DNA of 64,000 nt, taken from the NCBI GenBank assembly GCA_002762985.1, contig PCXZ01000018.1:741-64740 (forward strand), read 5' to 3'. Within the stretch, counting starts at the first letter, position 1. The number at the start of each line of letters is the position of its first letter. The DNA comes from Candidatus Woesearchaeota archaeon CG10_big_fil_rev_8_21_14_0_10_44_13 (GTDB taxonomy: Archaea; Nanobdellota; Nanobdellia; Woesearchaeales; UBA12501). Under the pieces are notes generated by a model, which made no database searches, had not been told where the DNA came from, and was given only the letters and a program-made list of their open reading frames with translations. This document shows, piece by piece, positions 21,607 to 55,719 of this stretch. The position numbers were made by a program, and so were the translations under genes.

Positions 21607-21609
21607 TCC

Positions 21610-22513: not shown

Positions 22514-22566
22514 AAAACAAAAAAATATATAAACCAACCAATAAAATAATGTTATCAGGGGGTTTT

Positions 22567-24564: not shown

Positions 24565-24600
24565 TTATGTAATTTTAACCTGACATTTCAAAAATATTTG

Positions 24601-24800: not shown

Positions 24801-24823
24801 TTTATGGGGAAAAGATTATTAAA

Positions 24824-25564: not shown

Positions 25565-25603
25565 CTCTCCCCGAATCCTCCCTCTCATGAAAGGGGGTTC
25601 AAT

Positions 25604-26212: not shown

Positions 26213-26220
26213 GGATATCC

Positions 26221-27231: not shown

Positions 27232-27241
27232 GGTGAATAGG

Positions 27242-27712: not shown

Positions 27713-27716
27713 GTGA

Positions 27717-28484: not shown

Positions 28485-28521
28485 TGCACACATGAGATAA
28501 ACAGCCGAGGTAAAAAACAAT

Positions 28522-29649
28522 ATGAAACTGAGCCCATTCAACCTTTATCCGCATCTTCCGAAGAAGAACTGCAGGGAATGCGGGGAATCCACATGCCTGG
28601 CTTTCGCCGTGAAGCTGCTGAACAGGGAAGCAGAGCTTGAGAAATGCCCGCATGTCAATGATGAACAGAAATCAAAGCTTAAGGCCATGTTCGAGCCGCC
28701 TGTGAAAGAGATAAGATACAAAGGATATAAGATGGGGGGAGAAGAGGTGATTCACAGGCATGAGCTGACATTCCATAATCTTCCGCTAATTGCATCGAAA
28801 AACAGGCCGGATATATTTTTTGAGAGGGCTGGCAAGAGGATGTCTGTTGAGCTTAAAGAGGCTCAGGATGACATCGGCGGGATCATATGGTGCAAAGAGA
28901 AGGCAAGAGCAGATGAATCCATAGAGAAGGCAAAAAAGGATGATCTGCCCGTGATAATGAGGGTGAATTCGATAGAAGAGGCAAAATCATTCTCAACAAG
29001 ATATGACAAGATCATGGTTGAATTCCACGGCTCTCCTGCAGAGGTCTTCAGGAATCTCAAGGATTACAGGGAGAGGGCGATAAAGGGTGAGCAGGGATGC
29101 AATCTTCCGACGATGTTCCTGGCTGATGATGAGGCAGAAGCGGCTTATGCATTGATGAGGTATGCGAATATTGTCGTGATAAACAACGAGGAAAAGGAAT
29201 TCCTTGAGCCATTCATGTATCTGCGCCAGGCGATATTCTCTGACCCGAGGATCCCTGCAAAAGTGGATGCTATACTCTACAAGATAGGGACTCCTGATGA
29301 GAACAGCCCTATCTTCGTCGTAGGAAATTATGCCCTGACATATTACACTGTCTCAGGCGACATAAACTCCCAGAAGATAAACTCCTATCTCATCGCATTC
29401 GACACTGAGGGTTTGAGCGTCTGGACAGCAGTCGCTGCCAATAAGTTCCTCCCTTCAAAGATAAGAGAGGTAATTGAAAACTCAAGGCTTTCTGAGAGGG
29501 TGAAGAACAGGACTCTGGTCATCCCGGGCTTCGCAGCGCCCTTAAAGGGAGCGATTGCAGAGGAAACCGGATGGAAGGTGGTTGTAGGGCCTGAGGACAG
29601 CAGGGAGATAGGGAATTTTATAGAGGAGATGAAAAGAGAGAAGCAATGA
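28522..29649 (+). CDS. acsC: Corrinoid iron-sulfur protein large subunit (AcsC/CdhE family), shortened
   Basis: N-terminal C-x2-C-x4-C-x16-C [4Fe-4S] motif (CRECGESTC...C); 375 aa. Confidence 0.7.
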   Translation: MKLSPFNLYPHLPKKNCRECGESTCLAFAVKLLNREAELEKCPHVNDEQKSKLKAMFEPPVKEIRYKGYKMGGEEVIHRHELTFHNLPLIASKNRPDIFFERAGKRMSVELKEAQDDIGGIIWCKEKARADESIEKAKKDDLPVIMRVNSIEEAKSFSTRYDKIMVEFHGSPAEVFRNLKDYRERAIKGEQGCNLPTMFLADDEAEAAYALMRYANIVVINNEEKEFLEPFMYLRQAIFSDPRIPAKVDAILYKIGTPDENSPIFVVGNYALTYYTVSGDINSQKINSYLIAFDTEGLSVWTAVAANKFLPSKIREVIENSRLSERVKNRTLVIPGFAAPLKGAIAEETGWKVVVGPEDSREIGNFIEEMKREKQ

Positions 29650-41704: not shown

Positions 41705-43591
41705 ATGAGCAGCGAATTTCTATTTCCGCATGAAAAGATCAGGAAAATCCAGGATGATCTGGTTAAAGATATAGCTGATGCTGTAAAAAACAGGAAACAT
41801 ATGATAGCCCATGCGCCTACAGGGCTGGGGAAGACTGCCGCTGTGCTGGGGCCTTCATTGAAGCGCGCGATAGATGAGAATCTCTCTGTGCTCTTCCTCA
41901 CATCAAGGCACACGCAGCACATGATCGCTGTAGAGACGCTGAAGGAGATAAGGAACAGGCATAATATTGATTTCAATGCGGTCGACATCATAGGCAAGAA
42001 ATGGATGTGCGCAATGCCCGGCGTCGAGCTCCTTTATTCCTCAGATTTCTCTGAGTATTGCAAGGCTGTGAGAGAGGACGGCAAGTGCGAGTTCTACATA
42101 AATACAAAAAACAACAGCAAAGCCACTGTCCAGGCCAGGAAGATCCTGGATGACATAAAAAAAATGGGCTGCATGCACACTGAGAAGCTGATAGAGCTGG
42201 CTAAGCAGGAGAAAGTCTGCCCATATGAGGTCGCCTCGATGCTCGCTTCCGAATCTAAGGTGGTGATCGCGGATTATTCCTATGTCTTCAACCCGGGCAT
42301 AAGCGAGACCTTCTTCGCAAAGGCGAAAAAAGAGCTCGACAGGTGCATCGTGATAATAGATGAAGGCCACAATCTGCCGAACAGGATAAGGGATTCGGCA
42401 ACAGAGAAGCTTTCCAGCTTCACTATCAAGAAAGCCATGAAAGAGGCGAAAAAACACGGCTATGATGAGATTGTTTCAGCGCTCTCACAGATACAGGACA
42501 TACTCAATGATTATTCGAAGGGGATGAAGAGTTATTCTGAAAGGCTTGTGAATAAGGATGATTTCATGAAAAAGATCGCAGGGATAAAGGATTATGACGA
42601 GCTCATTGCAGACCTTGAATTCACAGGGGATGCGATAAGGGAAGAGCAGAAGAAATCATCTGTGGGGGCAGTATCGAGATTCCTTGACAAATGGAGAGGG
42701 TATGACGACGGATTCGCAAGGATATTCTCTGTCAGGGAATTCAAGATGCAGCCATTTCTCACGCTTTCCTACAGGTGCCTTGATCCTTCCGTGGTCTCGA
42801 AGGAGATAATCAGCGGGTCCTATTCCACAATACTCATGAGCGGAACATTGAACCCTACGGAGATGTACAGGGACCTGCTGGGATTCCCGAAGGATACTGT
42901 CGAAAGATCGTATGAGAGCCCTTTCAAGGAAGAGAACAAGCTTACCCTTGTGGTCCCTGAGACGACGACGAAATTCTCAATGAGGCATGATGAGCAGTTC
43001 ATGAGGATTGCGGAGATCTGCGCAGATATCGTGAACATGGTCCCGGGGAATTCTGCGATATTCTTCCCAAGCTATGCGATAAGGGACAGGGTGTATGCAT
43101 ATCTTGACAGCCGATGCAAGAAGACGACCATGCTAGAGCACCAGCGCCTTACGAAAGAAGAGAAGGCCGAGGTCCTTGAGAAATTCAAGAGCTATAGCAA
43201 GTCAGGGGCGGTATTGCTGGGCGTTGCGACCGGCTCTTTCGGCGAGGGGATAGACCTGCCGGGAGACCTGCTGAAATGCGTCGTTGTAGTGGGATTGCCT
43301 CTGCAGCAGCCTGACCTTGAGACAAAGGAGCTGATAACCTATTATGATAAGAAGTTCGGGAAAGGGTGGGATTATGGGTATATCTTCCCTGCTTTCAACA
43401 AATGCCTGCAGAATGCAGGAAGATGCATAAGGTCGGAGACAGACAGGGGCGTTGTCATCTTCCTTGACCAGAGGTATATCTGGCCGATGTACAAGAGATG
43501 TTTTCCTGAGGATTCTGACATCAAGGTCACGACGCATTACAAAGAGATGATCGACGAGTTCTTCGAGCCTATGCAGAGGAAGCTGGGTTGA
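41705..43591 (+). CDS. XPD/Rad3-family FeS DNA helicase
   Basis: HAPTGLGKT Walker A, DEGH box, four-Cys FeS domain between the helicase motifs. Confidence 0.75.
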   Translation: MSSEFLFPHEKIRKIQDDLVKDIADAVKNRKHMIAHAPTGLGKTAAVLGPSLKRAIDENLSVLFLTSRHTQHMIAVETLKEIRNRHNIDFNAVDIIGKKWMCAMPGVELLYSSDFSEYCKAVREDGKCEFYINTKNNSKATVQARKILDDIKKMGCMHTEKLIELAKQEKVCPYEVASMLASESKVVIADYSYVFNPGISETFFAKAKKELDRCIVIIDEGHNLPNRIRDSATEKLSSFTIKKAMKEAKKHGYDEIVSALSQIQDILNDYSKGMKSYSERLVNKDDFMKKIAGIKDYDELIADLEFTGDAIREEQKKSSVGAVSRFLDKWRGYDDGFARIFSVREFKMQPFLTLSYRCLDPSVVSKEIISGSYSTILMSGTLNPTEMYRDLLGFPKDTVERSYESPFKEENKLTLVVPETTTKFSMRHDEQFMRIAEICADIVNMVPGNSAIFFPSYAIRDRVYAYLDSRCKKTTMLEHQRLTKEEKAEVLEKFKSYSKSGAVLLGVATGSFGEGIDLPGDLLKCVVVVGLPLQQPDLETKELITYYDKKFGKGWDYGYIFPAFNKCLQNAGRCIRSETDRGVVIFLDQRYIWPMYKRCFPEDSDIKVTTHYKEMIDEFFEPMQRKLG

Positions 43592-43623
43592 AGATTATCA
43601 AAATAACCAGAAGAAAACCACAG

Positions 43624-44208
43624 TTAATATATGACTTGGGAGACTATGCACTTATGGGCATCAAAGCTGCCTTTAAGGGCCTTAAGCTCGTTTAAGACTG
43701 CTTCAACTTTTGATCCCAATTCGCATATCTGGGTCGGTTCTGCAACAACCCCTGTGAAATCCTGAATATTATATACACCACCCACATTTTTCTTTCTACT
43801 ATTAAACCTCATCCTACTGAGTAATCCAAGGCCTCCCTCTTTCATTCCTTCTTTTAAGCATAGATCCCTGTACTGAACGACAGCTTCTACAAACTCTTCA
43901 GGAGTAGGTTGATATATCAAAGGAAGTTCCCAACTTACCATTTCAGGGTCTATATGATTCAAACTTGGTTTAAAAGGATTCTTAAAATCAATTGAATTAA
44001 AAGGCCATTTCTCTCTTTCGAATCTTGACCAGATTACTGGTTTTATATCAGAACTCTCACAGTATCTTTTTATAGCAGAATCAACCTCATCAGCAACATG
44101 CTTCCTGAATTTGCTGACTTCCTTAAAGGATTTCCTATCATTTATTATTTCAGGGTTTGTTTCCATCAAGCCCATTGAGATAAGATATCTTCCCACCATG
44201 CAGGGCAT
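43624..44208 (-). CDS. Hypothetical protein
   Basis: 194-aa ORF. Confidence 0.4.
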   Translation of the reverse strand: MPCMVGRYLISMGLMETNPEIINDRKSFKEVSKFRKHVADEVDSAIKRYCESSDIKPVIWSRFEREKWPFNSIDFKNPFKPSLNHIDPEMVSWELPLIYQPTPEEFVEAVVQYRDLCLKEGMKEGGLGLLSRMRFNSRKKNVGGVYNIQDFTGVVAEPTQICELGSKVEAVLNELKALKGSFDAHKCIVSQVIY

Positions 44209-44779
44209 GATGATATTGCTACTATATAAATGTTTCGGAACAGCTATTACTCTTGAGTAACAACTGCCCTTAATCCGCAGAATTCTTGCTTTAAAGGCCT
44301 CAATTCGCTTTTTACCTTGCTTCCTGTTTGCGAACTCATCTTCCTGTGTCCTGGCTCAATCTGAGATTGCTCTTGATTGCGTTTTGATTTCAGGCAATCT
44401 TCAATCTGTGAAGCTCCACTGATATTTAAGCTCTTGCCTTATTTTGTGAGAATTTGAGCCAATATGGCCATGGTACCATTTTTAGGACTAAAAATAGGAC
44501 TAAAAGTTGTGTTATAGTCTTTATATACTTTGAAATCTTATAGAAGATTGTGCCAGATTTTGTGCAAGATTTTGTAACAATTCGTTGCAAAGGGGTTTTA
44601 TATACTTTGAAATCAATAAGCTTCCGTTGCTTCAACGTTGTTTTTGTTAAAGATGTTAAAATAGTCACTTCACTAGTAGTGTGCTTATAAAATGTATACC
44701 TAAAAAAATTGTACAATTTTCTGTACAAAAAGTTTAGTTAGGGTATTTATATAGTCCAAAAACAATCAGGAGGTTCAAG

Positions 44780-45289
44780 ATGATGCAGTACAAACGAGAG
44801 CCTTTAGAGGATTTTGAGATAGAAGCCCTGAAGAAGGCCTGCGAATCATTTGAAGATTCATTAGTCGTCAATGTCCTGTTAGAGACGGGCATGAGAGTAT
44901 CTGAACTTGCCAATCTGACAAAGGATCAAATCTCTTGGCAGAGAGACTGCATCGCAACAATAGGCAAGGGCGGAAAAAGAAGGGTAATCCCTATGAGCAA
45001 AGCCACGAGGTTTTACCTTACTGAACATTTTAAAGACCATTCAAAGATAGAGTTTGGCCAGAGATGGATTCAGAAGATTGTAAAAAGAATAGCTGAAAAA
45101 GCCAGTATAATGAAGAAGATAAGCCCTCATGTTCTCAGGCATACTTTTGCAGTCTGCTACATCCACAAAGGCGGAAACATAAGGGCTTTGCAGGGCATCT
45201 TAGGCCATTCCCACATACAGACCACCGATATGTACCTCAACTATTCGGGCATAAGGGTTCTGGAGGATTTCAAGCGTGTATGGGAATGA
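44780..45289 (+). CDS. Tyrosine recombinase, catalytic domain only (169 aa)
   Basis: R (ETGMRVSE), K, HVLRHTF, LGHSHIQTTDMYLNYS catalytic residues. Confidence 0.7.
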   Translation: MMQYKREPLEDFEIEALKKACESFEDSLVVNVLLETGMRVSELANLTKDQISWQRDCIATIGKGGKRRVIPMSKATRFYLTEHFKDHSKIEFGQRWIQKIVKRIAEKASIMKKISPHVLRHTFAVCYIHKGGNIRALQGILGHSHIQTTDMYLNYSGIRVLEDFKRVWE

Positions 45290-46350
45290 TGGAAACAAGA
45301 AATAATTCATTTGAGAATCTAATCCTACTCTGCGGAGTTATTATTGTCTTATACAAATGGTTTGAATCTTATCAGGAGGAGCTTTTAAGTCCTTTTCAGG
45401 AGATAAATTGGCTTCATGTTGGAATATACTTTGTCATCATCCTATCTTCTGTAATACTCTTAATCTTTGCCTACAAGAGAAGGAAACAACACTTAGAGAG
45501 GAAGAGAGCAGAAGAGGAAAAGCTGCAAAGACAAGAGAAACAGTTGAAAGGGCTTTTGGGTACAACCTTTGGCTATTATTCCTCAGATGAAACAAGAGAG
45601 AAATTGAGGGAGATAAAGAAAGCGATATCCTCAATTCCGGAAAAGATAACCTCAAAATATGACCTGAACGGATTCTACGAAAAAGTTGAGAATATAATCT
45701 CTGAAAAGATAGGGCAGGAGAATGAATTACGGGAAAGAGAAAAAGCAAGAATACGGACTGAACATGAAGAAGCAAAAAGAAGGGAACAGGAAAGAGAGCA
45801 GAAACTCAAAGAAAGCAAGATTGAAATAAAAAAGCCAATCATAGAACGGCATGGCAAAAAGCTGGAGAAATCATTCTATCGTGTCAAGGATTTAAGCGAG
45901 GATGAAAGATTAAGAGCAATATCGCAGGGCTTTAAGCATTACAGAGGAATTGAGCTTGACGGCCATCTGTGCATTGGCGGGTTTTACATAAAGAACAATA
46001 AGAAAGAAAGCTCTTATCATTTCACTGCAAAACATCTCTTTGCAGAGCTTCGCCCCAATTCAAAGATAGAGTACGGCTTGGGAGACAAGAGGGCTGATGT
46101 GGCTTATATCTGCAAGGATTACAAATTGGGGCTTGAGATTGAGACAGGAACCAATAAGATTGAGCAGTTAGCAGCAAAAATCCCATGGCTGGAAAGGAAC
46201 TTCAGCCAGTGGATTTTTGTCTGCTCAAGGAAGGTCATGGGTAAATATGTGCATTTGGTTGATGGCAAGAAAAGCTTCTGTCTATCTCCAAAAAGGGCAA
46301 AGGAGAAGGTCTTGGAGCTGACTGCACCCAAATGCACCGAAAGGATTTAG
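45280..46350 (+). CDS. Hypothetical membrane / coiled-coil protein
   Basis: N-terminal TM helices, RKRAEEEKLQRQEKQ coiled coil, conserved-looking C-terminal domain. Confidence 0.4.
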   Translation: MGMMETRNNSFENLILLCGVIIVLYKWFESYQEELLSPFQEINWLHVGIYFVIILSSVILLIFAYKRRKQHLERKRAEEEKLQRQEKQLKGLLGTTFGYYSSDETREKLREIKKAISSIPEKITSKYDLNGFYEKVENIISEKIGQENELREREKARIRTEHEEAKRREQEREQKLKESKIEIKKPIIERHGKKLEKSFYRVKDLSEDERLRAISQGFKHYRGIELDGHLCIGGFYIKNNKKESSYHFTAKHLFAELRPNSKIEYGLGDKRADVAYICKDYKLGLEIETGTNKIEQLAAKIPWLERNFSQWIFVCSRKVMGKYVHLVDGKKSFCLSPKRAKEKVLELTAPKCTERI

Positions 46351-46364
46351 GCGAGAAGCCGTTA

Positions 46365-46392
46365 AAACCTCGAAAACAGGCTTTTCGAGGTT
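46365..46392 (+). terminator. Perfect 11-bp stem hairpin after the 45280..46350 gene
   Basis: AACCTCGAAAA cagg c TTTTCGAGGTT. Confidence 0.35.
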
Positions 46393-46664
46393 CAAAATGG
46401 ACGGGTAATATAGGCCTGATTGGTGCGCTTAAGCCCCCATTTAATAGCAGGATAGGCAAGGCCACGTATCAGATGGAGCTTTATCTAAACAAGGAGAGGT
46501 TCAAGGAAAGGATAGGGGAGATAACTAGGAAGGGGGTCTTGCCTGTGCTGGTGTGGTTTTATAAGGAAGAGAGGTAATATGTTAAGAACAAAAATATTAA
46601 GACTTGGGAAAGAGAAAGTTCTTCTGAGTTAATTTTATATAGTGAGTTCTGCTTTCTTATATGT

Positions 46665-47150
46665 ATGGGCATCTTTAAGGCAGTCAAAGAGATGATCACA
46701 CTCATATCTGAAATGCCCAAAATATTGTTAGTAAGTATGGGTTTCTTATGGGTAGGAAGCATAGTTTGGTATTTAAAAGAACCAAGCGAAAATGGTCTTT
46801 TGGGGATGGGATTTATATTTGTTATTACTATCATAAATATTTATTATTATACAAGAGAGGGATTTAAGGATTGGATAAAAGGTGAGAAATTAAAAGTTCT
46901 TATAAGAAGATTATACTTAGATGGCGATAAACAATTATTGAAGGAGATAAAAGAGACTGATTTAGATAATCTGCCTTATGCAATTTGGGATGGTGCTGAA
47001 TATGCTGAGATATACAAAAAAGTATTAGGTTATTCAATAAAGGCAAGAAGGGGGGATAATTGTATGTATAGTCTTACGGATAGGATACTCGGTGGGGATA
47101 TTCATCTACGTAGTATTCACGAGACTATTAAGAATAAGAGATTAAAATAA
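46665..47150 (+). CDS. Hypothetical membrane protein
   Basis: 161-aa ORF with N-terminal TM helices. Confidence 0.35.
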   Translation: MGIFKAVKEMITLISEMPKILLVSMGFLWVGSIVWYLKEPSENGLLGMGFIFVITIINIYYYTREGFKDWIKGEKLKVLIRRLYLDGDKQLLKEIKETDLDNLPYAIWDGAEYAEIYKKVLGYSIKARRGDNCMYSLTDRILGGDIHLRSIHETIKNKRLK

Positions 47151-47258
47151 TAATCGGGCATACCCCTCGGCTTTCTTTTATAATTTTGTGTTAATTTGGT
47201 ATATAATGCCCTCAGTTTAATCCATTTATGGCCGGAAAGAATAAAATTATATAAATTC

Positions 47259-47909
47259 TTAATCTTTATAGATTTTCACTTCTTTTAATCTTTGCTTTAA
47301 TTTATCAAGATTTTCCTTTCTTCTGTGAAAATCTTTAACCTTATTTAGATGTTCAATATTACATTCAAGATAATATATAATTCTTTTTTTATCAAAATCA
47401 ATATTTAAAGTTTTAAGCATATTTTTCCATTCTGGCGTTCCAAAAACTATTATCTTATCTACAACTTCAGTTATGTTGGATATATTCGTCGTATCTTTAT
47501 GATCTTTATGAACTGCCCCTTGGAGATTAATTGTCCCCTTTTTTAAATTAATTTGAGTGACAGTAGATATGCTTTCGTGATATCCAGTATTACCTCCATA
47601 TAGTATTTCAACAAAATCATTTAGTTTTGGGTATCTATTAGTTCTTATAAATATATCCCCAGGAAAACAAAAGTCAGATATTATGAATCCGATAATTTCA
47701 ACTTCAACATATTGTGTGGTCCTCCTCGACTTTAAATAAGATTGAAAGCATTTTGTTAGTTTAACAGGTAATTCATTAAAAATATCAATCAAAAAAGCAA
47801 AGCGTTCTGGTTGTTTAAGAATTTCCTTTGCAAACCTTTTTGGATCTGCTCTTTCAATCGTCTCTTTAATCTCTTGTTTTTTATCAAAACGCACCATATA
47901 ACCACCCAA
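47259..47909 (-). CDS. Hypothetical protein
   Basis: 216-aa ORF. Confidence 0.4.
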   Translation of the reverse strand: MGGYMVRFDKKQEIKETIERADPKRFAKEILKQPERFAFLIDIFNELPVKLTKCFQSYLKSRRTTQYVEVEIIGFIISDFCFPGDIFIRTNRYPKLNDFVEILYGGNTGYHESISTVTQINLKKGTINLQGAVHKDHKDTTNISNITEVVDKIIVFGTPEWKNMLKTLNIDFDKKRIIYYLECNIEHLNKVKDFHRRKENLDKLKQRLKEVKIYKD

Positions 47910-48007
47910 TCCCCTATTTGGGATATCTTTATTTATAAATATTTGTCCATAAAAACCAAAAACTTTATATATAACCTAGTATTATACCATGTAATAGGGT
48001 GTTATAA

Positions 48008-48178
48008 ATGGTAAAAATACTAATTGACTTATCTGACGATGAAGATAAAATAGTTGAAGTGTACAAACTAATGAATAATCTCAAAACTAAACAAGAAGCA
48101 ATTAAACAGATTGTGCAGTACTTTAAGGTCGATATAAAACCGAAAAATGTCAAAGAAAAAGATTATTATTCAGTCTGA
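48008..48178 (+). CDS. Possible 56-aa ribbon-helix-helix-like small protein
   Basis: MVKILIDLSDDEDKIVEVYKLMNNLKTKQEAIKQIV pattern (strand then helix). Confidence 0.3.
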   Translation: MVKILIDLSDDEDKIVEVYKLMNNLKTKQEAIKQIVQYFKVDIKPKNVKEKDYYSV

Positions 48179-48189
48179 GGAGGTAAAAA

Positions 48190-48795
48190 ATGGAAATTTC
48201 AACAATAGTCTGGATCGGAGCATCAGTCTTTGTAGCAGTTATATTGTATATTTTAATTAAGAATTGGGTTGTTATATACAACAAATTTGTATACTGGAGA
48301 ACCAGGGCAGAGAGAAAATTCGCAGATATTGATGTTGTGATGCAACAAAGGATTGATATGCTCCCTGCACTTGCTCAGATTGTTAAGAAATATGATATTC
48401 ATGAATATAAAGCGCTTAAAGAGGTAATTGAAGCAAGAAGTCGCTGGACAAAAGATGCTTCTCTGAATGAGAAAGTTCAGACAGTTCAAGAGATTGATAA
48501 CAGCTTTTTAAGGATTCAGGCAGTTTTTGAAAAATATCCTCAATTAAAAGCAGATGCTTTACATCAGAGCATCCTAGGGCATGGCAATGTTTCAAGGATG
48601 GAATCAAGATTAAGAGAGTTTAGATTAGGATATAATAGGGTGGCTCAGGACTATAATGAGAGAGTACAAAAATTTCCTAGAAATGTAGTAGCAAAGGTTC
48701 ATGGGTTTAAGTTGTTAGACTATCTAACTATGGGCAACCAGGTAAATCAAGGGCCACAGCAATCCTATAAACCAAAAGAATTATTTGAAGAATAA
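48190..48795 (+). CDS. LemA-family membrane protein
   Basis: N-terminal TM helix then the LemA-like region YWRTRAERKFADIDVVMQQRIDMLPAL. Confidence 0.65.
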   Translation: MEISTIVWIGASVFVAVILYILIKNWVVIYNKFVYWRTRAERKFADIDVVMQQRIDMLPALAQIVKKYDIHEYKALKEVIEARSRWTKDASLNEKVQTVQEIDNSFLRIQAVFEKYPQLKADALHQSILGHGNVSRMESRLREFRLGYNRVAQDYNERVQKFPRNVVAKVHGFKLLDYLTMGNQVNQGPQQSYKPKELFEE

Positions 48796-48803
48796 TTATC
48801 AAA

Positions 48804-49301
48804 ATGAGAATTTTTCAGAGATGGTTTTGGGAAAGATATTGGCTTCTTTTTGTTGTCTTAGTTATACTAATTTCTGTAATTAGTGCTTTCTCGGTGAAAA
48901 CAATTTTGTTATCTTTATTATTAACCTGGGGATGGTCAAGAATAAAAACTATCCTCAGAAAACACAAAAAGAATGTATATAGAACAATACCTCAAAGAAG
49001 AAAGTTTATAAGAAGATTTAGAAGATCTGGGTCTCAAAAGAGATTTAAAGGAATAAATCCAGATTATCTACCCACTCGAATAGAGACACAAGCACATAAA
49101 GACTTCCATAGAAGATTATCTCAATGGAAAATGAATCATCCAGGTAAAGAACCTAATAAAAACCAAATGTATAGGTTGGCGATAAACTCAAGTCATGATA
49201 CTTTGAGAACAAGAGGAGCAAAGGGTCATTGGGGGCGCCAGAAGATAAGGAAGAAAATTCTTGAAGGTAAAAATGTCGTAAAGAAATACGAGATGAAATG
49301 A
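48804..49301 (+). CDS. Hypothetical basic protein with N-terminal TM
   Basis: 165-aa ORF. Confidence 0.4.
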   Translation: MRIFQRWFWERYWLLFVVLVILISVISAFSVKTILLSLLLTWGWSRIKTILRKHKKNVYRTIPQRRKFIRRFRRSGSQKRFKGINPDYLPTRIETQAHKDFHRRLSQWKMNHPGKEPNKNQMYRLAINSSHDTLRTRGAKGHWGRQKIRKKILEGKNVVKKYEMK

Positions 49302-49302
49302 T

Positions 49303-49869
49303 ATGTTTAATCAACAAAAGAAAGTAAAACCAATTATAATAGGGGTATGTGGTAGAAGTTGTTCAGGCAAGTCTACTGTCGTTAAAGCGCTAGAAGAGAA
49401 GTATAAAGGCGAATTTCTGAATATAAATCAAGATAAATTCTTCAAGGTAAAAGCAGATAATTGGGAAAGTCCTGAATCTTTAAGAATAGATAGATTGATT
49501 TATTCTATCAAAAAACTAAGAAATGGAGAATCAACACATATACCTAGTCACAGATGGACAGAAGTTTTTGATAGGGAAGTAATACCCCCTAAAGTCATTA
49601 TTGTTGAAGGTTACCTTCTTTTTGCTGATGAAGAACTATCTAAACTATTTGACAAGAAGATATGGGTTGATGTTTCTGATGCCAATATCATATATAGAAG
49701 AACAAAAAGAGACGGCACAAGTAAACATATAGATTATACCATGAATAAGGTGATACCTGAATCTAAGAGATATGAAGAGATACAGAGAAAGAGGGCAGAT
49801 ATAATTATTGATGGAAATAAAACAAAAGAAGAAATAATACAAGAATTTGAGAGGTATATCAAAAAATGA
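49303..49869 (+). CDS. P-loop nucleoside/polynucleotide kinase-like protein (uridine kinase / PRK family-like)
   Basis: IIIGVCGRSCSGKSTV Walker A; 188 aa. Confidence 0.55.
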   Translation: MFNQQKKVKPIIIGVCGRSCSGKSTVVKALEEKYKGEFLNINQDKFFKVKADNWESPESLRIDRLIYSIKKLRNGESTHIPSHRWTEVFDREVIPPKVIIVEGYLLFADEELSKLFDKKIWVDVSDANIIYRRTKRDGTSKHIDYTMNKVIPESKRYEEIQRKRADIIIDGNKTKEEIIQEFERYIKK

Positions 49870-50060
49870 CAAAAATAACCTATTCTTTAATAAACACAAT
49901 TAGAAGAATATTCCGCAAACATAAACATCATGCAGTATATGATAAGAAGTGGTGTCACTGGTATTGTAGTAAATGTAACCGTGAACTATATTATAATGAT
50001 CTGCCACCCAAAGTCTGGAAGCATTTAATGCAAAAATCAAGGAGGGTAAAAAGACATTAA
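49866..50060 (+). CDS. Small basic His/Cys-containing protein
   Basis: 64-aa ORF with HKHH...C.W.CSKC. Confidence 0.3.
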   Translation: MTKITYSLINTIRRIFRKHKHHAVYDKKWCHWYCSKCNRELYYNDLPPKVWKHLMQKSRRVKRH

Positions 50061-50061
50061 A

Positions 50062-50769
50062 ATGGGCAACTATTTAATAGAATTTAGATTTCAATCTAAG
50101 CGAATAAGAACTTATCTTAAAGGTATGATTTATGAGATAAACAGGAGGTTTGGAGTTGGAAAAAGAAAACATATCCCCCATATAACTCTGGTTGGCCCCA
50201 TTATTACAAATAATGAGGGAAGACTCATATCTGATTTTGCAAGAGTATGTTCCCAAACAAAAGTTATGAAATTTAAAGGTGAAGGGTTTGGAACATTTGA
50301 CAATAATAGGGTTGTGTTTGTGGATATTGGAGCTACTGATAAACTCAACGAGTTTAGGATAAATCTTGTAGAAGCTTTAAGACCTTATTGCAAACTTCAA
50401 TCCCAAGACAAGAAAAAAGAGAAGGATAGATTTAAGTACCATTCTACATTAGCCATGAAATTAAATCAAAGTGAGTTTGATTCTATCAAAACTTATATCA
50501 GAAATAAGCCTGCTCCGGAATTTAAACAGATTGTTATGAGGATTACTTTACTCAAAGGAGGAAAGATTTTAAGAGAATATGATTTCATGCAAAAAAGATT
50601 ACTAAAAAGAAGACAAGCACTAAATAAAATGATTTTAAGAAATAGTAAAGAACTTCTACGTAGATTTATAGAAGGTAAATATGACCCCAATGAGAGGCTA
50701 AAACAGGCAATTGAATATAAACAGCCTACTTTATGGGATAAGATTAAAAGCTTTTTTGGAATAAGATAA
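50062..50769 (+). CDS. 2H phosphoesterase superfamily protein (LigT / cyclic phosphodiesterase-like)
   Basis: Two H-x-T/S-x motifs: HITLVGP and YHSTLAM. Confidence 0.6.
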   Translation: MGNYLIEFRFQSKRIRTYLKGMIYEINRRFGVGKRKHIPHITLVGPIITNNEGRLISDFARVCSQTKVMKFKGEGFGTFDNNRVVFVDIGATDKLNEFRINLVEALRPYCKLQSQDKKKEKDRFKYHSTLAMKLNQSEFDSIKTYIRNKPAPEFKQIVMRITLLKGGKILREYDFMQKRLLKRRQALNKMILRNSKELLRRFIEGKYDPNERLKQAIEYKQPTLWDKIKSFFGIR

Positions 50770-50774
50770 ATAAA

Positions 50775-51182
50775 ATGACCCCAAAAGAGATAACTCAAGG
50801 GATGGTAGACAAACAGTTTAAAAGATTAGAGATAAATCTAAAAAAAGCAGCAGATAAGTCCCCAAATAAATTAAAAACAATTCTTAAAAAAATGGCAAGT
50901 GAGGCTCCCGAGGCGACTGTTAGTATATTAAGAAAAATGGTTATTAGATTAATAGATGAAGTAGAAGAATCAAAAAAACAAATAAAGACAACAAAAAAAC
51001 ACGAAGAAAAGATAAGAAAACTGAAAGAATATCGTATGTTTTTTTTAGAGATTCTTGTTAAACTCCAAGGCTACAAAGACGTTAAAGATTATCAGAAAAA
51101 GAATATACGCATATTTAGTAAGGAAGTAAGAGATCATCTTGAACAGAATGATTATGAGATTAAAATAGATAGGAGTAAATAA
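50775..51182 (+). CDS. Hypothetical protein
   Basis: 135-aa ORF, Lys-rich. Confidence 0.4.
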   Translation: MTPKEITQGMVDKQFKRLEINLKKAADKSPNKLKTILKKMASEAPEATVSILRKMVIRLIDEVEESKKQIKTTKKHEEKIRKLKEYRMFFLEILVKLQGYKDVKDYQKKNIRIFSKEVRDHLEQNDYEIKIDRSK

Positions 51183-51188
51183 ATGGTA

Positions 51189-51599
51189 TTAACATATAAT
51201 CTGCAATATTAGGGATATAATGCCCACCAAGATAGTTGTGATTGTTAATACTATAACCCATTTTGTTAATCTTTCATTATTCCACATGCTTATTAAACTC
51301 AAACCAGTTGGCCCAAGTTTTATCATGTTACCATCTTTTGATTTTACTAATACTCCCTGCTTAACAAAAGTGTCTATATCCTCTTCGGAAAGAATTTGTT
51401 TTGTCCATGCTATACCTTCCACAAAATCACTAGGATAATATTTATAGTAGCGATATAAAAGCTTTTTAATATCCTTCTTGCAGGCTTCATGCTCTTCCAA
51501 TGATTTTATCATAGCTTTAAGTAACCCTTTCTTTATAGTGGGATTAGTTATTTGTCTTGGGCCTTCTCTTTTTCTAATTTTGATATCCATATTATACAC
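51189..51599 (-). CDS. Hypothetical protein with C-terminal TM helix
   Basis: 136-aa ORF. Confidence 0.4.
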   Translation of the reverse strand: MYNMDIKIRKREGPRQITNPTIKKGLLKAMIKSLEEHEACKKDIKKLLYRYYKYYPSDFVEGIAWTKQILSEEDIDTFVKQGVLVKSKDGNMIKLGPTGLSLISMWNNERLTKWVIVLTITTILVGIISLILQIIC

Positions 51600-51669
51600 T
51601 TAGTAGACCCCCTATATATTTATTATGGTCAGAAATGGATGTTTATTGAATATCTTTAGCTCCTTGCCT

Positions 51670-52404
51670 TCAATATACCCTTTCTAACACTTCCATCTTA
51701 TCCTTATACTCTTCCAGCGAGATGTCCCCATTTGCATACTTCAGCTGCAACAGCTGGATAGGATCATTCACCAGATGGAAGCTTTCCTTCTTCTTGTGGC
51801 CAAAAGCAGTATTGATCTTGTTCTGCAAATCCTTGTTGCTTATATGGGCATATATCTGCGTTGTGTGGATGTCAGAATGGCCTAATGCCCTCTGCACATA
51901 ATACAGATCAACACCTTTCTCCAAGAGAAAGGTGGCAAAAGTATGCCTCAAAGTATGGAAGCTGTAAGCGTGCCTCTGCTGTCCACAAACAGTTTTTTCT
52001 GTCTCAATCAGCAGGCCTGCTTCTTCCAGGCATTTCCTGAACTTGTTTGATAACTGCCCTTCTGCCATCCATCCTTTAAACACAGCAGGGATTACATACT
52101 CAGAACCATTGATCCTGAACCATTTCTCCAGTATTGGCTTTAGCTTCTCTGGAAGCATCACATATCTGTCCTTGCTTCCCTTGCCTTGCACAATCTTAAT
52201 CCTCTCGCTCTCAAAGTCAATGTCCTGCTTTTTCAGGCTGCAAGCCTCACTTATCCTCAAGCCGCAGCATAATGCCAATAAACAAGCGATGAATATATCT
52301 GTTTCCTTAATGCAATTGAACAGCTCCAATAGCTGTTTCTTGTTCAGCACATTCGGCAGTTTCCTGCCTTTTTCTTTTATCTTCCTTATATTGACCATTT
52401 TCAC
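51670..52404 (-). CDS. Tyrosine recombinase / integrase, catalytic domain
   Basis: GLRISEA (R), HTLRHTFA (HxxR), LGHSDIHTTQIYAHIS (Y). Confidence 0.8.
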   Translation of the reverse strand: MKMVNIRKIKEKGRKLPNVLNKKQLLELFNCIKETDIFIACLLALCCGLRISEACSLKKQDIDFESERIKIVQGKGSKDRYVMLPEKLKPILEKWFRINGSEYVIPAVFKGWMAEGQLSNKFRKCLEEAGLLIETEKTVCGQQRHAYSFHTLRHTFATFLLEKGVDLYYVQRALGHSDIHTTQIYAHISNKDLQNKINTAFGHKKKESFHLVNDPIQLLQLKYANGDISLEEYKDKMEVLERVY

Positions 52405-52787
52405 ATCTCCTTAATCAGCCTTAAGCCAAGCTGTTTTATGTCAATCTGAAGGCCTGTCTCTGTCTCATGCCTTCTCTCAAAGAACAGCTTGATGGCCTTC
52501 TTCTGGCTCAGGTAATGGTTTCTGAGCTGAAACTTTATCTCTTCAGGAACTCTCTCTAATAAAGCCCAGCGATAGACAGTAAACGGATTGTAGGAATTCT
52601 CTATCAGGGCATTGTATAGCTCTCTTTCTTTTCCAACAATCATCCCCTTTCTTTTGTTGTAGTGGTATGTTGCCAGTCTGCTCAGCAAAGGACACATTTC
52701 CTGAACACTCAGATCAGGGAAGTGCATCTTTACCAGCCCTCTGACCTTTTCCAGCTCTTCAAAAACACTTTTGCGAATTCCTGCCAT
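52401..52787 (-). CDS. Integrase N-terminal SAM-like domain as a separate ORF (split or frameshifted integrase)
   Basis: 128-aa ORF overlapping the integrase start by ATGA. Confidence 0.45.
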   Translation of the reverse strand: MAGIRKSVFEELEKVRGLVKMHFPDLSVQEMCPLLSRLATYHYNKRKGMIVGKERELYNALIENSYNPFTVYRWALLERVPEEIKFQLRNHYLSQKKAIKLFFERRHETETGLQIDIKQLGLRLIKEM

Positions 52788-52996
52788 TCTTTACGACCTC
52801 CCGTTTAGCAACTCTCTCAGATGCCAGAATTCGCAGGAATCAGCCCGTCAGCGCAAGAATTCGCAGATTTTAAATCTTTCTATTTTCATCTCTTTTTAGT
52901 AGTAACTAAAATCCCTTTTATGATTAGTATACACATCCCTATACTAATCCTCATAATAGTAACATTTATATACTAGTCTATCATTATACCGGTATT

Positions 52997-53404
52997 ATGG
53001 TCGTACTCTTCGATCAATACAATCTGCCGGAAAATGTCTATGAAGTAGTATTCGCCACAGAGCAGCAGGCAGTCGTCGGAAAGCTCCTCATCGATGAGCT
53101 GAAATCCCACGGCGGAGAGATGGGCAAGACAGAGATGTCATTGTTCGCGAATAACCTCCATGAGGGGACTATCATCGAGGTCGATGAGCCGGGCCCGATG
53201 GGCAGGATCACGAGGAAAAAGCTGAAGATCTCATACAACAAGAGGCAGTTTTACGACAGGATACTCACGCCGATGAAGGCCATGGGCATGATCGATTATG
53301 ATCTTTACCAGAAGAGATACAAGATATCGGACAAATTCAACAGGGCTCTCACGAAGATAGGCATCATGTGGAGCCAGGAGGTCCATAAGAAGCCCAGGAT
53401 ATAG
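52997..53404 (+). CDS. Hypothetical protein
   Basis: 135-aa ORF. Confidence 0.4.
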   Translation: MVVLFDQYNLPENVYEVVFATEQQAVVGKLLIDELKSHGGEMGKTEMSLFANNLHEGTIIEVDEPGPMGRITRKKLKISYNKRQFYDRILTPMKAMGMIDYDLYQKRYKISDKFNRALTKIGIMWSQEVHKKPRI

Positions 53405-53606
53405 CAGGACTATGGGGCATCACATTCAAAGGCTCCCTATATGGTTCTGTTTTCTCAACCACCCCCAACGAAACCCTTTTCATAATAGGGAGCCTTTCAT
53501 ATTCATTCTGGGACATTTGATGTTACTTATTGCATTCTTTTCGCTCAGCAACAACAATATTGGCGCCTAGATATGCTGATTACTAAAAACAATTAACAAC
53601 AATATC

Positions 53607-53700
53607 GGTGGGGAAACTACGTTTCCCCCTGCCCCTTCCTGCAACGGGCCGGAGAAGAGGGAGCATTTGGTGGTTATTGCCTTATCTTGTTTGGGATATC
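53607..53700 (+). repeat. Intergenic repeat family, copy D (truncated)
   Basis: GGTGGGGAAACTACGTTTCCCCCTGCCCCTTCCT hairpin module and GAAGAGGGAGCAT core fragment. Confidence 0.55.
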
Positions 53701-53873
53701 AACATACTCCAAACCTCTTATAACCCCAGTTTTCTGTGGTTTTAAGCTGAGCCATTATAGCTACTGATTAGTAGTTAAAAAAAGGAAAGATTTATATATT
53801 AGTTGTCCCATATATTGCTTACCGAGCAAAAGAGATGGTTTGGAAAGGGTGAAAAAAGAAAAAGGGTTGGAAT

Positions 53874-55052
53874 ATGGCGGAAATTATCAAAAAAGCAATT
53901 GAGTACTTCATTAAATCTTTTGAAGGGATATCTGATAAAGATAGGGACTCCCTTGCCAAAATGTCTGAGATGGACAAGGAGATATTGAGATATATCAAGA
54001 CTAAGAATATTTCTAATTTACACGCCCATTACCAAAACAGGAGGGAGCAGATAAACCCTTTGATTGAGCGTATAGGGTTGTTCGGTCTGATGATCGACAG
54101 GAACCATCTAAGGCTCAGCAAGAAGAAAGAAGATGATTTGATTGCCGAGACATATTCCCTGGATAAGATGATAGAAATGCAGGATGCTCTAGAAAATCCA
54201 AGAAGGCTTATCACAAAGATAGATGAGTACAAGAACATAATCAGCGCATTGAAAAATGAAGAGAATAGATTAAGCAAGATAAGGGATGAGCTGGCAGACA
54301 AAGTTGACAAGCTCATAACAATAGACGACTTAACAAAGTTGTATCGCAAGGAATTCTTTAAAAAAAGGGCGATAGAGGAGATTGCAAGGGCAATGAGGAC
54401 AGGGGAAGGATTTCTTATATTAATGTCGGACATAGATCATTTTGGCGAGTATAATGATACTTTCGGCCATATCCCCGCAGGTGACGAGGCATTAAAGACT
54501 GTTGCAAGGGTATTAAGCAGATCAGTAAGGGAAGGGGACATTGGTGAAAGGCATGGAAATGATAATTATGAGAATGAAGGCGGCAGGCAGGGCGGCGAAG
54601 AGTTCGTATACCTTATACATGGGGTGCCAAAAGAAAAAGCGCACAGCATAGTTGACAGGGTAAGAAAAAATGTCGAATCTACAGTATTCGATGAATACAA
54701 TCCCCTCAACCCGGAAAAGAACGGATATGGCATGATGACCTCGCCTGACTGCATCCAGCCAGGATATGACAGCAAGAAAATCACCACAAGCATAGGTTAT
54801 TTAACATTCGATCCTAATGAATTCAAAGACCCTTCTGCATTCAGATATTCCACTGATTTTGAAAGGATTTCCAATGCAAAGGAGATACGCCCGAATGATA
54901 TATTCATGGAGATGATGAGGCGCATAGATGCAGCGTTATATGTGGCCAAAGGTTCAGGCAGGAATAATGTAAAAAGGTATGATCCTAGCATGGAGATTGG
55001 CAACAATGCAAAAGTACATGAACTTAGCATGGAGAATTGCAAACATGAATAG
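53874..55052 (+). CDS. GGDEF-domain diguanylate cyclase with N-terminal coiled-coil region
   Basis: DIDHFGEYNDTFGH..GDEAL, RQGGEEF, TTSIGYL, IDAALYVAKGSGRNNV motifs. Confidence 0.7.
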   Translation: MAEIIKKAIEYFIKSFEGISDKDRDSLAKMSEMDKEILRYIKTKNISNLHAHYQNRREQINPLIERIGLFGLMIDRNHLRLSKKKEDDLIAETYSLDKMIEMQDALENPRRLITKIDEYKNIISALKNEENRLSKIRDELADKVDKLITIDDLTKLYRKEFFKKRAIEEIARAMRTGEGFLILMSDIDHFGEYNDTFGHIPAGDEALKTVARVLSRSVREGDIGERHGNDNYENEGGRQGGEEFVYLIHGVPKEKAHSIVDRVRKNVESTVFDEYNPLNPEKNGYGMMTSPDCIQPGYDSKKITTSIGYLTFDPNEFKDPSAFRYSTDFERISNAKEIRPNDIFMEMMRRIDAALYVAKGSGRNNVKRYDPSMEIGNNAKVHELSMENCKHE

Positions 55053-55719
55053 AATGCATCTTAAGCTCGAACAGGTGAAACTCGCAGGGAAAGTCATCAC
55101 GACTGACTCTTTTGAGGAGATCAGCCTCATAGGTGGCTGCGACCAGGCTTATACAAATGATGGCAAGATAGTATCGACGATAGTCGTGCTTGACAAGAAC
55201 CTCAAGGTTGTTGATTCTGCGAATGCTGTTGCTGAATGCAGGATGCCGTACATCCCGGGATACCTCTTCTACAGGGAAGCCCATGTCATAATAGAGGCTT
55301 TCAACAAGCTGAAACAAAGGCCGGAGATACTCGTTGTCGACGGCAACGGCATACTCCATCCGAGAAGGATAGGCATGGCCTCGCAATTAGGCATAGTCCT
55401 TGACATCCCTACGATAGGCGTTGCAAAAACGCTCATGATGGGGCAATCAATGGACGGCAGGATCGAAGTTGACAAGGAGATAAGGGCGATAGAGGTGAGA
55501 ACAAGGGAATTCGCAAAGCCTCTGTATGTGTCTCCTGGCCACAGGATCAGCCTGAAGACTGCTGTCGAGATGATACAGAAGATGATCGTCCAGCCGCACA
55601 AGCTGCCTGAGCCATTGCACCTGGCACACAGGTTTGCGGACAAAAAGAGAGACAGGTTGGCCAATGGGCCGAAGTTCGGACAGGAACCATTGAAGACTGC
55701 ACAAGAGATAGATGTCTGA
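55045..55719 (+). CDS. nfi: Endonuclease V
   Basis: GGCDQAY ... VVLD ... YIPGYLFYRE ... VDGNGILHPRRIG ... IPTIGVAKT. Confidence 0.8.
   Translation: MNRMHLKLEQVKLAGKVITTDSFEEISLIGGCDQAYTNDGKIVSTIVVLDKNLKVVDSANAVAECRMPYIPGYLFYREAHVIIEAFNKLKQRPEILVVDGNGILHPRRIGMASQLGIVLDIPTIGVAKTLMMGQSMDGRIEVDKEIRAIEVRTREFAKPLYVSPGHRISLKTAVEMIQKMIVQPHKLPEPLHLAHRFADKKRDRLANGPKFGQEPLKTAQEIDV

Follow-up and report, generated by a model that had tools for sequence, protein, structure and literature searches.

Do archaea possess diguanylate cyclases of their own? Reviews describe these enzymes as almost exclusively bacterial (PMC10249747). The census of cyclic di-GMP (c-di-GMP) proteins accepts essentially one archaeal GGDEF protein, that of Methanocella arvoryzae, and leaves open whether the archaeal GGDEF and HD-GYP genes found in metagenome-assembled genomes (MAGs) are genuine or contamination (PMC5847659; bioRxiv 10.1101/2021.11.05.467447). 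Likewise, it has been stated that such cases "need to be confirmed in archaeal contigs" (PMC10086821), and in one groundwater study the diguanylate cyclase genes of ultra-small bacteria and archaea were counted together, the archaeal ones not being resolved. The question is raised again by a stretch of 64,000 nt of contig PCXZ01000018.1 (assembly GCA_002762985.1), derived from a Candidatus Woesearchaeota MAG from Crystal Geyser and referred to as a whole as the window, which harbors the following gene:

53874-55052, plus strand: GGDEF protein gene, 392 aa (PIN86891.1, COV19_02695), identified as an open reading frame (ORF) with Pfam and TIGRFAM matches

A first-pass annotation, made from the DNA letters alone, had interpreted this ORF as a GGDEF diguanylate cyclase in an otherwise archaeal context and had pointed out that GGDEF domains are rare in archaea, in agreement with the literature cited above. 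Taken together, the data presented here make it rather probable that the window contains a genuine chromosomal Woesearchaeota gene for a soluble GGDEF-family diguanylate cyclase of ultimately bacterial origin. The protein stands for a new and divergent subfamily within a known kind of enzyme, encountered in an unexpected domain of life. We found no published analysis of these Woesearchaeota proteins, of which one is named "hypothetical" and one "GGDEF domain-containing" in the public records.

The GGDEF domain is interrupted by inserts

The 392-aa ORF is present as annotated and corresponds, with 100% identity, to a Woesearchaeota protein at NCBI that carries the name "hypothetical protein". 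The Pfam score, which had been left to be determined, is 85.7 bits for PF00990 (E 3.8e-24; cutoff 23.8 bits), and TIGR00254 matches with 99 bits (cutoff 37.4 bits); thus, the GGDEF match is far above chance. Moreover, 47 diguanylate cyclases in the PDB were matched by sequence, with WspR as the best match. The PF00990 match spans only positions 2-109 of the 161 positions of the profile, because two large inserts split the C-terminal half of the domain. The C-terminal part reappears at aa 344-367 (ALYVAKGSGRN), where a second HMMER match to the AKxxGRN helix was obtained, and the domain is therefore interrupted and not truncated. Every feature of the GGDEF cyclase family for which we looked was found in the protein, except the lysine at the position of PleD K332.

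Catalytic and inhibitory residues

The window protein was aligned with 119 homologs (120 sequences in total), and residue roles were assigned in PleD numbering, the register being checked against the PleD coordinate ranges of the PDB sequence match. With the exception of PleD K332, all invariant and near-invariant columns of this alignment are kept in the window protein. The residues correspond to PleD as follows:

D186: PleD D327, metal ligand
D188: PleD D329
N194: PleD N335, guanine ligand
D204: PleD D344, guanine ligand
R219xxD222: PleD R359xxD362, primary inhibitory site (I-site)
R238: PleD R366
G240-G-E-E-F244: PleD G368-F372
E242: PleD E370, metal ligand
R262: PleD R390, partner arginine of the I-site
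K359: PleD K442, phosphate ligand
R363: PleD R446, phosphate ligand

The corresponding motifs, and the inserts between them, are located at the following positions, insert lengths being given relative to the bacterial median of the alignment:

54444-54446, plus strand: codon of Gly191 at the PleD K332 position (DIDHFG vs. DxDxFK), from the 120-sequence alignment
54528-54539, plus strand: RxxD inhibitory-site motif R219-E-G-D222 with partner R262, columns at least 90% conserved in the family
54540-54584, plus strand: insert A, aa 223-237, which lengthens the stretch from the I-site to the GGEEF hairpin by about 12 residues
54591-54605, plus strand: GGEEF active-site motif, aa 240-244, with R238 just before it, read from the sequence; its columns are invariant or nearly so
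54681-54782, plus strand: insert B, aa 270-303, located behind helix alpha3 and adding about 21 residues, common to the ortholog P0002
54810-54890, plus strand: insert C, aa 313-339, 25 residues more than the bacterial median, 18 of them unique to the window protein

The motifs RQGGEEF and DID and the ALYVAKGSGRN end, which the first-pass annotation had read from the sequence, are each present. Its statement that all signatures are retained holds for the GGEEF motif, the metal ligands and the end motif, but not for the lysine of DxDxFK, which is replaced by Gly191. Both guanine-binding residues, N335 and D344 in PleD, have been described as essential (PMC7288161). The K332 column contains lysine in 109 of the 120 sequences, whereas glycine occurs only in the window protein, in its ortholog P0002 and in nine second domains of tandem-GGDEF proteins. 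PleD K332 has been called a transition-state stabiliser (PMC12943098). The GTP phosphates in the PleD complex are, however, contacted by the backbone of F330-K332 and not by the side chain of K332 (PMC7288161), and by analogy this contact could persist despite Gly191.

The inhibitory site resembles that of feedback-inhibited cyclases, comprising an RxxD motif at the end of helix alpha2 and an arginine equivalent to R390. R219 lies exactly 15 residues past D204, the same distance as from D344 to R359 in PleD, and R219, D222, R262 and R264 are invariant between the window protein and P0002. The usual 5-residue spacing between the I-site and GGEEF is lengthened by insert A, which places 15 residues between D222 and R238 (median 3). 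This insert is the best-conserved segment between the two orthologs, with 62% identity and a proportion of nonsynonymous differences (pN) of 0.19, and its predicted local distance difference test (pLDDT) score in the structure model described below is low. Insert B comprises 34 residues (median 13, maximum 19), and the segment with insert C 40 residues (median 15; 22 in P0002). In addition, the GH-xx-GD loop of the window protein contains a 1-residue insertion. A single insert of about 20 residues before GGEEF had been annotated initially; the insert exists, but it adds about 12 residues, and two further inserts had been missed.

Predicted structure and known relatives of the protein

An AF2 model built from the 120-sequence alignment reached a mean pLDDT of 78, with values above 90 in the GGDEF core and low values in aa 1-100 and in the inserts; an earlier model based on a two-sequence alignment (pLDDT 41.8) was unusable. 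The protein is composed of three regions:

53874-54197, plus strand: orphan helical N-terminal region, aa 1-108 (helical prediction, low confidence)
54198-54320, plus strand: stalk helix, aa 109-149, at the entry to the GGDEF domain (model helix, pLDDT 76-95)
54321-54977, plus strand: GGDEF catalytic domain, aa 150-368 (template modeling (TM) scores in Foldseek 0.80-0.87; core pLDDT above 90; invariant columns kept except K332)

A Foldseek search of the PDB returned only diguanylate cyclases, the TM scores, normalised to the target, being 0.80-0.87 over whole solved GGDEF domains. These matches include the coiled-coil-GGDEF structures 3i5c (GCN4-WspR), 6ttr (DgcB) and 7e6g (SiaD). In the model the alpha/beta fold of the GGDEF domain is complete, including the C-terminal half that lies outside the Pfam match. 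The stalk aligns to the WspR stalk, to the GCN4-WspR fusion and to the DgcB coiled coil, and the modelled helix together with the top fold matches bears out the coiled-coil N-terminus proposed in the first-pass annotation. An exhaustive HMMER search with aa 1-140 against 1.84 billion cluster representatives yielded only the window protein itself and one 350-aa relative with 46% identity; aa 1-108 may possibly form a sensor or dimerisation module. As no transmembrane segment was found in the protein, it is predicted to be soluble.

The best PDB sequence match is WspR of Pseudomonas aeruginosa (PA3702; PDB 3BRE, 3I5A-C), which, together with GCN4-WspR, gave TM scores of 0.73-0.83. Like the window protein, WspR has a helical stalk or coiled coil running into the GGDEF domain, a GGEEF active site (A-site) and an RxxD I-site. 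It differs by its N-terminal REC domain and by the lysine at K332, whereas the window protein has an orphan N-terminus, Gly191 and three inserts (+12, +21 and +25 residues), and its gene has an archaeal host and a putative archaeal promoter. DgcB of Caulobacter crescentus (6TTR, 6TTS) and SiaD (7E6G) show the same combination of stalk and GGDEF domain with no other recognisable domain (TM 0.80-0.86), but are bacterial, lack the inserts and contain a canonical DxDxFK motif. Moreover, SiaD is regulated by binding of SiaC, for which no counterpart is visible at the window locus. In PleD of Caulobacter (1W25, 2V0N), D327, N335, D344, R359xxD362, R366, G368-F372, R390, K442 and R446 are identical to the window protein; PleD differs in its REC-REC input and in having K332, and the window protein in the one-residue insertion in the GH..GD loop and the three larger inserts.

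The Palm domain of Cas10/Cmr2 (GGDD) from type III CRISPR systems, which is common in archaea, shares the Palm/GGDEF superfold, and PF22335, which we take to be the second Palm domain of Cas10/Cmr2, matches some of the retrieved homologs. Unlike Cas10, the window protein has GGEEF instead of GGDD, is only 392 aa long and contains no HD or other Cas10 domains; no cas genes were found in the 64 kb window. An interpretation as part of a defence system was rejected, since PADLOC returned only noise (E 0.003). The archaeal GGDEF protein known from the census, RCIX2274 (CAJ37382) of Methanocella arvoryzae, is likewise encoded in an archaeal genome (PMC5847659; bioRxiv 10.1101/2021.11.05.467447). By its description, it is set apart as a REC-PAS-PocR-GGDEF-HD-GYP protein of a euryarchaeal methanogen, whereas the window protein is a stalk-GGDEF protein without phosphodiesterase domain from a DPANN archaeon.

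The gene occupies an archaeal locus

The GGDEF gene is flanked by genes and elements that are also found in other Woesearchaeota:

41705-43591, plus strand: XPD/Rad3 helicase gene, the ancestral upstream neighbor of p135 (Pfam DEAD_2, HBB, Helicase_C_2; synteny in about 30 loci)
52997-53404, plus strand: p135, a conserved Woesearchaeota core gene that anchors the locus, encoding 135 aa
53426-53510, plus strand: hairpin element directly 3' of the p135 stop codon, from a covariance model
53770-53804, plus strand: promoter-like block AGTAGTTAAA...GGAAAGATTTATATATTAGTT, resembling an archaeal B recognition element (BRE)/TATA box, 70-80 nt upstream of the ATG
55045-55719, plus strand: endonuclease V gene (Pfam Endonuclease_5, 191.7 bits), its start chosen by homology to the loci L001 and L008

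Among the GTDB species representatives, p135 has 282 relatives, of which the best 80 are 59-78% identical; most of these 80 are titled Woesearchaeota, Nanoarchaeota or Nanoarchaeia. Across 30 sequences 48 residues are invariant, and p135 is usually encoded right after XPD, as seen in about 30 related Woesearchaeota loci. Its protein has neither a Pfam nor a PDB match, and a p135 profile searched against the PDB gave no significant relative. Many GTDB representatives with the order XPD-p135-hairpin (L008-L010, L018, L019, L023 and others) are titled 'uncultured Methanosarcinales archaeon', and one such genome 'Euryarchaeota archaeon SM23-78'; these titles are probably taxonomic mislabels.

The hairpin, which is unannotated, consists of a stem of about 10 bp and a loop of about 50 nt that contains GGTTCTGTTTTCTCAACCACCCCCAAC as a conserved core. 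Covariance-model matches were obtained after p135 in about 45 of 80 loci (L005-L084). All 10 of 10 pairs covary, 94.5% of the cells being paired, and the covariation score is 0.71 as compared to 0.28 in shuffles, in an alignment that was fitted to the model. A match to the hairpin was not found in Rfam. It belongs to p135, is independent of the GGDEF gene, and may represent a 3'-untranslated region, terminator or small RNA element, or a protein-binding site.

The closest relative of the window protein, P0002 (350 aa, 47% identity), is encoded on the 1.8 kb contig L001, which shows the same order as the window: p135 (79% identical), hairpin, AGTrGTTAAA...GAAAGnTTTATATA box, GGDEF gene and endonuclease V gene. 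In both loci, the start of the endonuclease V gene overlaps the stop codon of the GGDEF gene, and the two genes are therefore probably co-transcribed. In contrast, the endonuclease V gene follows p135 without a GGDEF gene in L008 (p135 75% identical) and in L049. The promoter-like block, a putative promoter, is kept in the window, in L001, in L006 and in the GGDEF-less L008; L008 also keeps the hairpin, and its box stands ahead of a small ORF and the endonuclease V gene. Since hairpin and box are present in L008, the GGDEF gene sits in an archaeal transcription unit that existed before it. Synteny breaks off downstream of p135, and this slot has many different occupants.

The small ORFs (about 45-65 aa) that follow the promoter-like box in L006 (7712-7846) and in L008 (about 10680-10849) are homologous (shuffle p 0.005). 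They overlap the start of the next gene, which encodes the GGDEF protein in L006 and endonuclease V in L008, and are absent from the window and L001. A derivation of the N-terminus of the window protein from this ORF was rejected, as comparisons with the N-termini of the window and L001 proteins gave shuffle p values of 0.53 to 0.998. In the spacer between p135 and the GGDEF gene (53500-53740), about 220 nt of the window are missing from L001. This spacer contains a perfect 8-bp inverted repeat, GGGGAAAC-TAC-GTTTCCCC (53610-53628), and two copies of the short direct repeat AACAACAATATyGG.

Selection on the GGDEF genes and their flanks

For two pairs of loci, the proportions of synonymous (pS) and nonsynonymous differences were determined:

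Window vs. L001, p135: pS 0.556, pN 0.113
Window vs. L001, GGDEF gene: pS 0.78 (saturated), pN 0.32
L024 vs. L088, GGDEF gene: pS 0.708, pN 0.204
L024 vs. L088, downstream neighbor: pS 0.579, pN 0.037

Between the window and L001, pN is lower than pS in every region of the GGDEF gene, including the inserts and the N-terminal region (aa 1-108: pN 0.345, pS 0.76), and omega is about 0.11 in the second archaeal GGDEF family (L024 vs. L088). At nonsynonymous sites, the GGDEF proteins evolve 3 to 5 times faster than their flanks. The comparable divergence of the GGDEF genes and their flanks, combined with pN below pS, indicates long co-divergence under purifying selection. Thus, the window gene has been vertically inherited under purifying selection since the split from its 47%-identical ortholog. 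An allele replacement, which would give the GGDEF gene a history unlike that of its flanks, was considered and found no evidence, the pS of the flanks being comparably high (0.56-0.58 vs. 0.71-0.78).

The neighboring integrase element and the composition of the gene

Between XPD and p135, the window contains an integrated element:

About 43600-52990, no strand assigned: integrated element of about 9.4 kb with AT-rich cargo (GC 29-35%) and codon usage unlike the host
44780-45289, plus strand: tyrosine-integrase gene at one end of the element (Pfam)
51670-52404, minus strand: tyrosine-integrase gene at the other end of the element (Pfam)

The right-hand integrase consists of a 244-aa catalytic domain only and is overlapped by a 128-aa ORF before it; it may therefore be split or frameshifted. 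The cargo includes LemA, a LigT-like 2'-5' RNA ligase, a PRK/AAA_18 kinase-like protein and several orphans.

The GGDEF gene has a GC content of 40.5% and a GC content at third codon positions (GC3) of 46.6%. The means of the host genes are 47.3% (standard deviation (SD) 1.6) and 58.9% (SD 6.1), and those of the element genes 35% and 34%. Its codon log-likelihood ratio (-0.002) is below that of all 22 host genes (+0.02 to +0.35) and resembles that of the genes at the integrase ends of the element (-0.07 to +0.11), the AT-rich cargo ranging from -0.31 to -0.41. A deficit in GC3, as compared to p135, is likewise found in L001, L006 and L024. As it is seen in all four lineages, it is a lasting property of the gene and not evidence of a recent arrival. 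The low GC3 suggests weak codon adaptation or foreign ancestry. The comparison of composition that the first-pass annotation had left to be done thus places the gene between host and element, but gives no indication of a recent acquisition.

Contamination and cargo as alternative origins

Contamination is common in MAGs (PMC5847659; bioRxiv 10.1101/2021.11.05.467447), and beyond the one ortholog the nearest homologs of the window protein are bacterial, as would be expected if the GGDEF gene were bacterial DNA that had been binned or chimerically assembled into an archaeal MAG. However, the contig that carries the gene is 87.5 kb long and has archaeal markers to the left and to the right of it: the markers of archaeal or eukaryote type encoded in the window are NMD3, XPD with an HBB domain, DUF7343, a TFS/RPB9 zinc ribbon, DUF2250, a XerA-like integrase and a Sulfolobus-type TrmJ. 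An identical protein, together with the upstream p135 and the downstream endonuclease V gene, is found on four independently assembled contigs (NCBI, ENA, JGI and Logan) with the same junctions. Moreover, the order with the Woesearchaeota-specific p135 and the endonuclease V gene, including the overlap of stop and start codons, is kept in a second species, and the upstream block recurs in a relative that lacks the GGDEF gene. Given the archaeal markers, the four assemblies with the same flanks and the conservation of p135 across the group, contamination or chimerism is very unlikely, to the point of being hardly credible, and the gene is a genuine chromosomal gene of a DPANN archaeon. The markers, the NCBI name, the taxonomy, which places Woesearchaeota in the archaeal kingdom Nanobdellati, and the relatives of p135 all agree with the archaeal context described in the first-pass annotation. 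Where a bacterial organism or lost catalytic residues had been named as grounds for giving up its reading, we found an archaeal host and retained catalytic ligands, K332 excepted.

The first-pass annotation had also taken the closeness to the integrase-bounded element as a hint to the route of arrival. The right-hand integrase module is indeed only about 1.1 kb away from the GGDEF gene, and the GC content and codon usage of the gene lie between host and element values, in line with cargo that was recently acquired by horizontal transfer. Yet the insertion site of the element is the junction of XPD and p135, and the core gene p135 with its 3' hairpin stands between the element and the GGDEF gene, which is therefore not cargo of the element. 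The slot is filled likewise in L001, where the GGDEF protein is 47% identical and synonymous sites are saturated, and in L006, which has no integrase element; in each of the four lineages with a GGDEF gene, its GC3 is low as compared to p135. Direct repeats of the att type were sought around the element and around the GGDEF gene, but only short, chance-level matches were obtained, and no att-like repeats enclose the gene. Consequently, we regard a recent arrival as cargo as highly improbable. What stands of the proposed horizontal acquisition is an ultimately bacterial origin, which is the most likely history of the gene; the recent arrival with the element does not stand.

Further GGDEF genes in Woesearchaeota

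Among 5.8 billion clustered proteins, P0002 is the single close relative of the window protein. The next-best matches are generic bacterial GGDEF proteins with at most 96 bits over about a third of the query, and a metagenome scan with subfamily-specific peptides gave three distant matches only. A hidden Markov model (HMM) built from 118 non-archaeal homologs was searched against 1.17 Mb of Woesearchaeota DNA, comprising 80 p135-centred loci, L001 and the window. This survey revealed exactly four GGDEF domains (window, L001, L006 and L024), each encoded by the immediate downstream neighbor of p135. Most of the surveyed loci contain no GGDEF gene, and L006 and L024 carry different GGDEF genes in the same slot.

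The L024 protein (P0121, 273 aa) contains DLDHFK..ND..GH and RIGGEEF but lacks the I-site aspartate; a 67%-identical relative, P0122, is known from a contig that does not include the upstream gene. The L006 protein (MCX6707808.1), cut by the contig end, contains RKTD-IVARY-GGEEF and is preceded by the small ORF described above. Both resemble the window protein in following p135, in their coiled-coil N-terminus and in the intact GGEEF. In contrast to the window protein, they keep the lysine and lack the inserts, they are only 26-34% identical to it, and their N-termini are unrelated.

The three Woesearchaeota groups are 26-34% identical to each other. In a neighbor-joining (NJ) tree (a distance method with low power; 159 columns, 200 bootstraps), the window protein grouped with P0002 and the L024 protein with P0122 in 200 of 200 replicates each, whereas a joint archaeal clade was recovered in 0 of 200. 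A single clade of Woesearchaeota GGDEF proteins is thus not supported in this low-power test, in line with the unrelated N-termini and with the position of L006 near a bacterial family. The half-domain of L006 shares 42-57% identity with a family of about 385 aa whose contexts are bacterial (sigma-54 activator, HisKA kinases, STAS and RsbW-like anti-sigma modules). Hence, a repeated uptake of bacterial GGDEF genes into one slot appears somewhat favored, and a single old capture followed by fast divergence and frequent loss is a well conceivable, though less probable, history.

Tandem GGDEF-GGDEF proteins (P0003, P0004, P0006-8, P0011, P0013, P0017 and P0038) are the best non-orthologous matches to the window protein, and P0003 is its sister in the NJ tree. 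Their second domains contain DIDHFG and also show changes of ND to NK or NH, of GH to GY or GD and of K442 to valine; they may represent a degenerate regulatory subfamily.

Predicted function

The window protein is most likely an active, feedback-inhibited cyclase under archaeal control. By analogy with the biochemistry of PleD and WspR, on which this proposal and the residue roles rest (PMC7288161, PMC12943098), a homodimer formed via the stalk would bring two GTP-loaded GGDEF domains together, and the paired domains would condense two GTP to c-di-GMP. The N-terminal helices would gate the cyclase by shifting the register of the stalk, as in WspR, DgcB and PadC, and the product would feed back on the RxxD site and R262. 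The best indirect argument for c-di-GMP as the product is that the allosteric site specific for this nucleotide is kept in both orthologs.

Several observations weigh against this proposal. The side chain of K332 is gone, and among the retrieved homologs glycine is found elsewhere only in second domains that look degenerate. Three inserts flank the active-site hairpin, where the confidence of the model is low, and the GC content, GC3 and codon usage of the gene are atypical for the host. Domain scans of about 86 ORFs of the 64 kb window revealed no EAL, HD-GYP or PilZ domain, as had been noted in the first-pass annotation, and no c-di-GMP riboswitch was found in the window with Rfam. Upstream of the GGDEF gene, there was no Rfam match at the gathering threshold, a permissive search giving only emrB-Lactobacillus RNA (E 0.16). 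Finally, c-di-GMP has never been detected in any archaeon (PMC10249747).

Alternatively, the protein could be a catalytically dead or very weak GGDEF protein and serve as a sensor, receptor or scaffold that binds nucleotides, either GTP at the A-site or a cyclic dinucleotide at RxxD. The change of K332 to glycine, shared with the seemingly degenerate second domains of the tandem proteins P0003, P0004 and P0006, the insertions beside the GGEEF hairpin and the lack of turnover or effector genes nearby in the window scans would fit such a role, and the intact I-site would suit a receptor. Degenerate receptors, however, normally lose the GGDEF motif and the metal and base ligands, whereas here both are kept under purifying selection in two orthologs that are only 47% identical. 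In addition, the phosphates are contacted by the backbone and not by the side chain of PleD K332, and a c-di-GMP receptor in a cell without a cyclase would have no ligand. We therefore consider a dead enzyme unlikely, albeit the most serious of the alternatives. A further alternative is an active enzyme with another product, such as 3',3'-cyclic GMP-AMP (3',3'-cGAMP), cyclic di-AMP (c-di-AMP; Hypr-like) or a linear pppGpG-type nucleotide, the inserts and Gly191 having retuned its specificity. Hypr GGDEF enzymes carry a serine at the PleD D344 position; the window protein has the aspartate D204 there and is therefore no member of this subclass. A different product would fit the strong divergence of the subfamily, its conserved inserts and the change in the GH-xxx-GD loop beside the base-binding aspartate, but the two residues that specify guanine, N194 (PleD N335) and D204 (PleD D344), are both kept. 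Archaea are known to use c-di-AMP and cyclic oligoadenylates, not c-di-GMP (PMC10249747), but the retained RxxD with its arginine is a c-di-GMP-binding feature (PMC12943098), and a different product appears distinctly improbable. We thus favor an active, feedback-inhibited diguanylate cyclase, whose activity is probably adjusted, but not abolished, by Gly191 and the three conserved inserts.

It is possible, though rather doubtful, that some Woesearchaeota run a real c-di-GMP pathway, with bacterial GGDEF genes repeatedly captured directly behind p135 and its hairpin, expressed from an archaeal promoter and maintained by purifying selection, and with receptors other than PilZ, EAL or HD-GYP proteins. 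In the lineage of the window, a subfamily of its own would then have arisen, marked by glycine at K332, the three conserved inserts and the orphan sensor region. If so, this pathway would be the first in the domain Archaea, and the signal might act in attachment or host-interaction behavior of the small-celled Woesearchaeota. The locus supplies for one lineage the confirmation in archaeal contigs that has been called for, by its reproducible junctions, conserved gene order and archaeal upstream block, to which the measurable selection in two separate archaeal GGDEF families adds. The question of archaeal c-di-GMP can now be tested with named proteins (PIN86891.1, MCX6707808.1 and the L024 protein). 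Moreover, the natural K332G variant with its conserved inserts provides material for structure-function work on GGDEF catalysis.

Other gene content of the window

Two further regions of the window are worth mentioning. Genes for CODH/ACS are located at 20158-29649, among them one for a CdhC-type beta subunit fused to the N-terminal domain of CODH-alpha, two CdhD-like genes and one for a CooC-like ATPase; the same region encodes a 482-aa fusion of MtrA-like, thymidylate-synthase and pterin-binding DUF4346 domains. Such metabolic content is unusual for a DPANN genome. The region 1039-9139 comprises a glycogen/starch cluster with a eukaryote-type glycogen synthase (PF05693, E 4e-140), a GH57 enzyme, a GT4/GT5 synthase, a GalT-like transferase and the C-terminal domain of a debranching enzyme.

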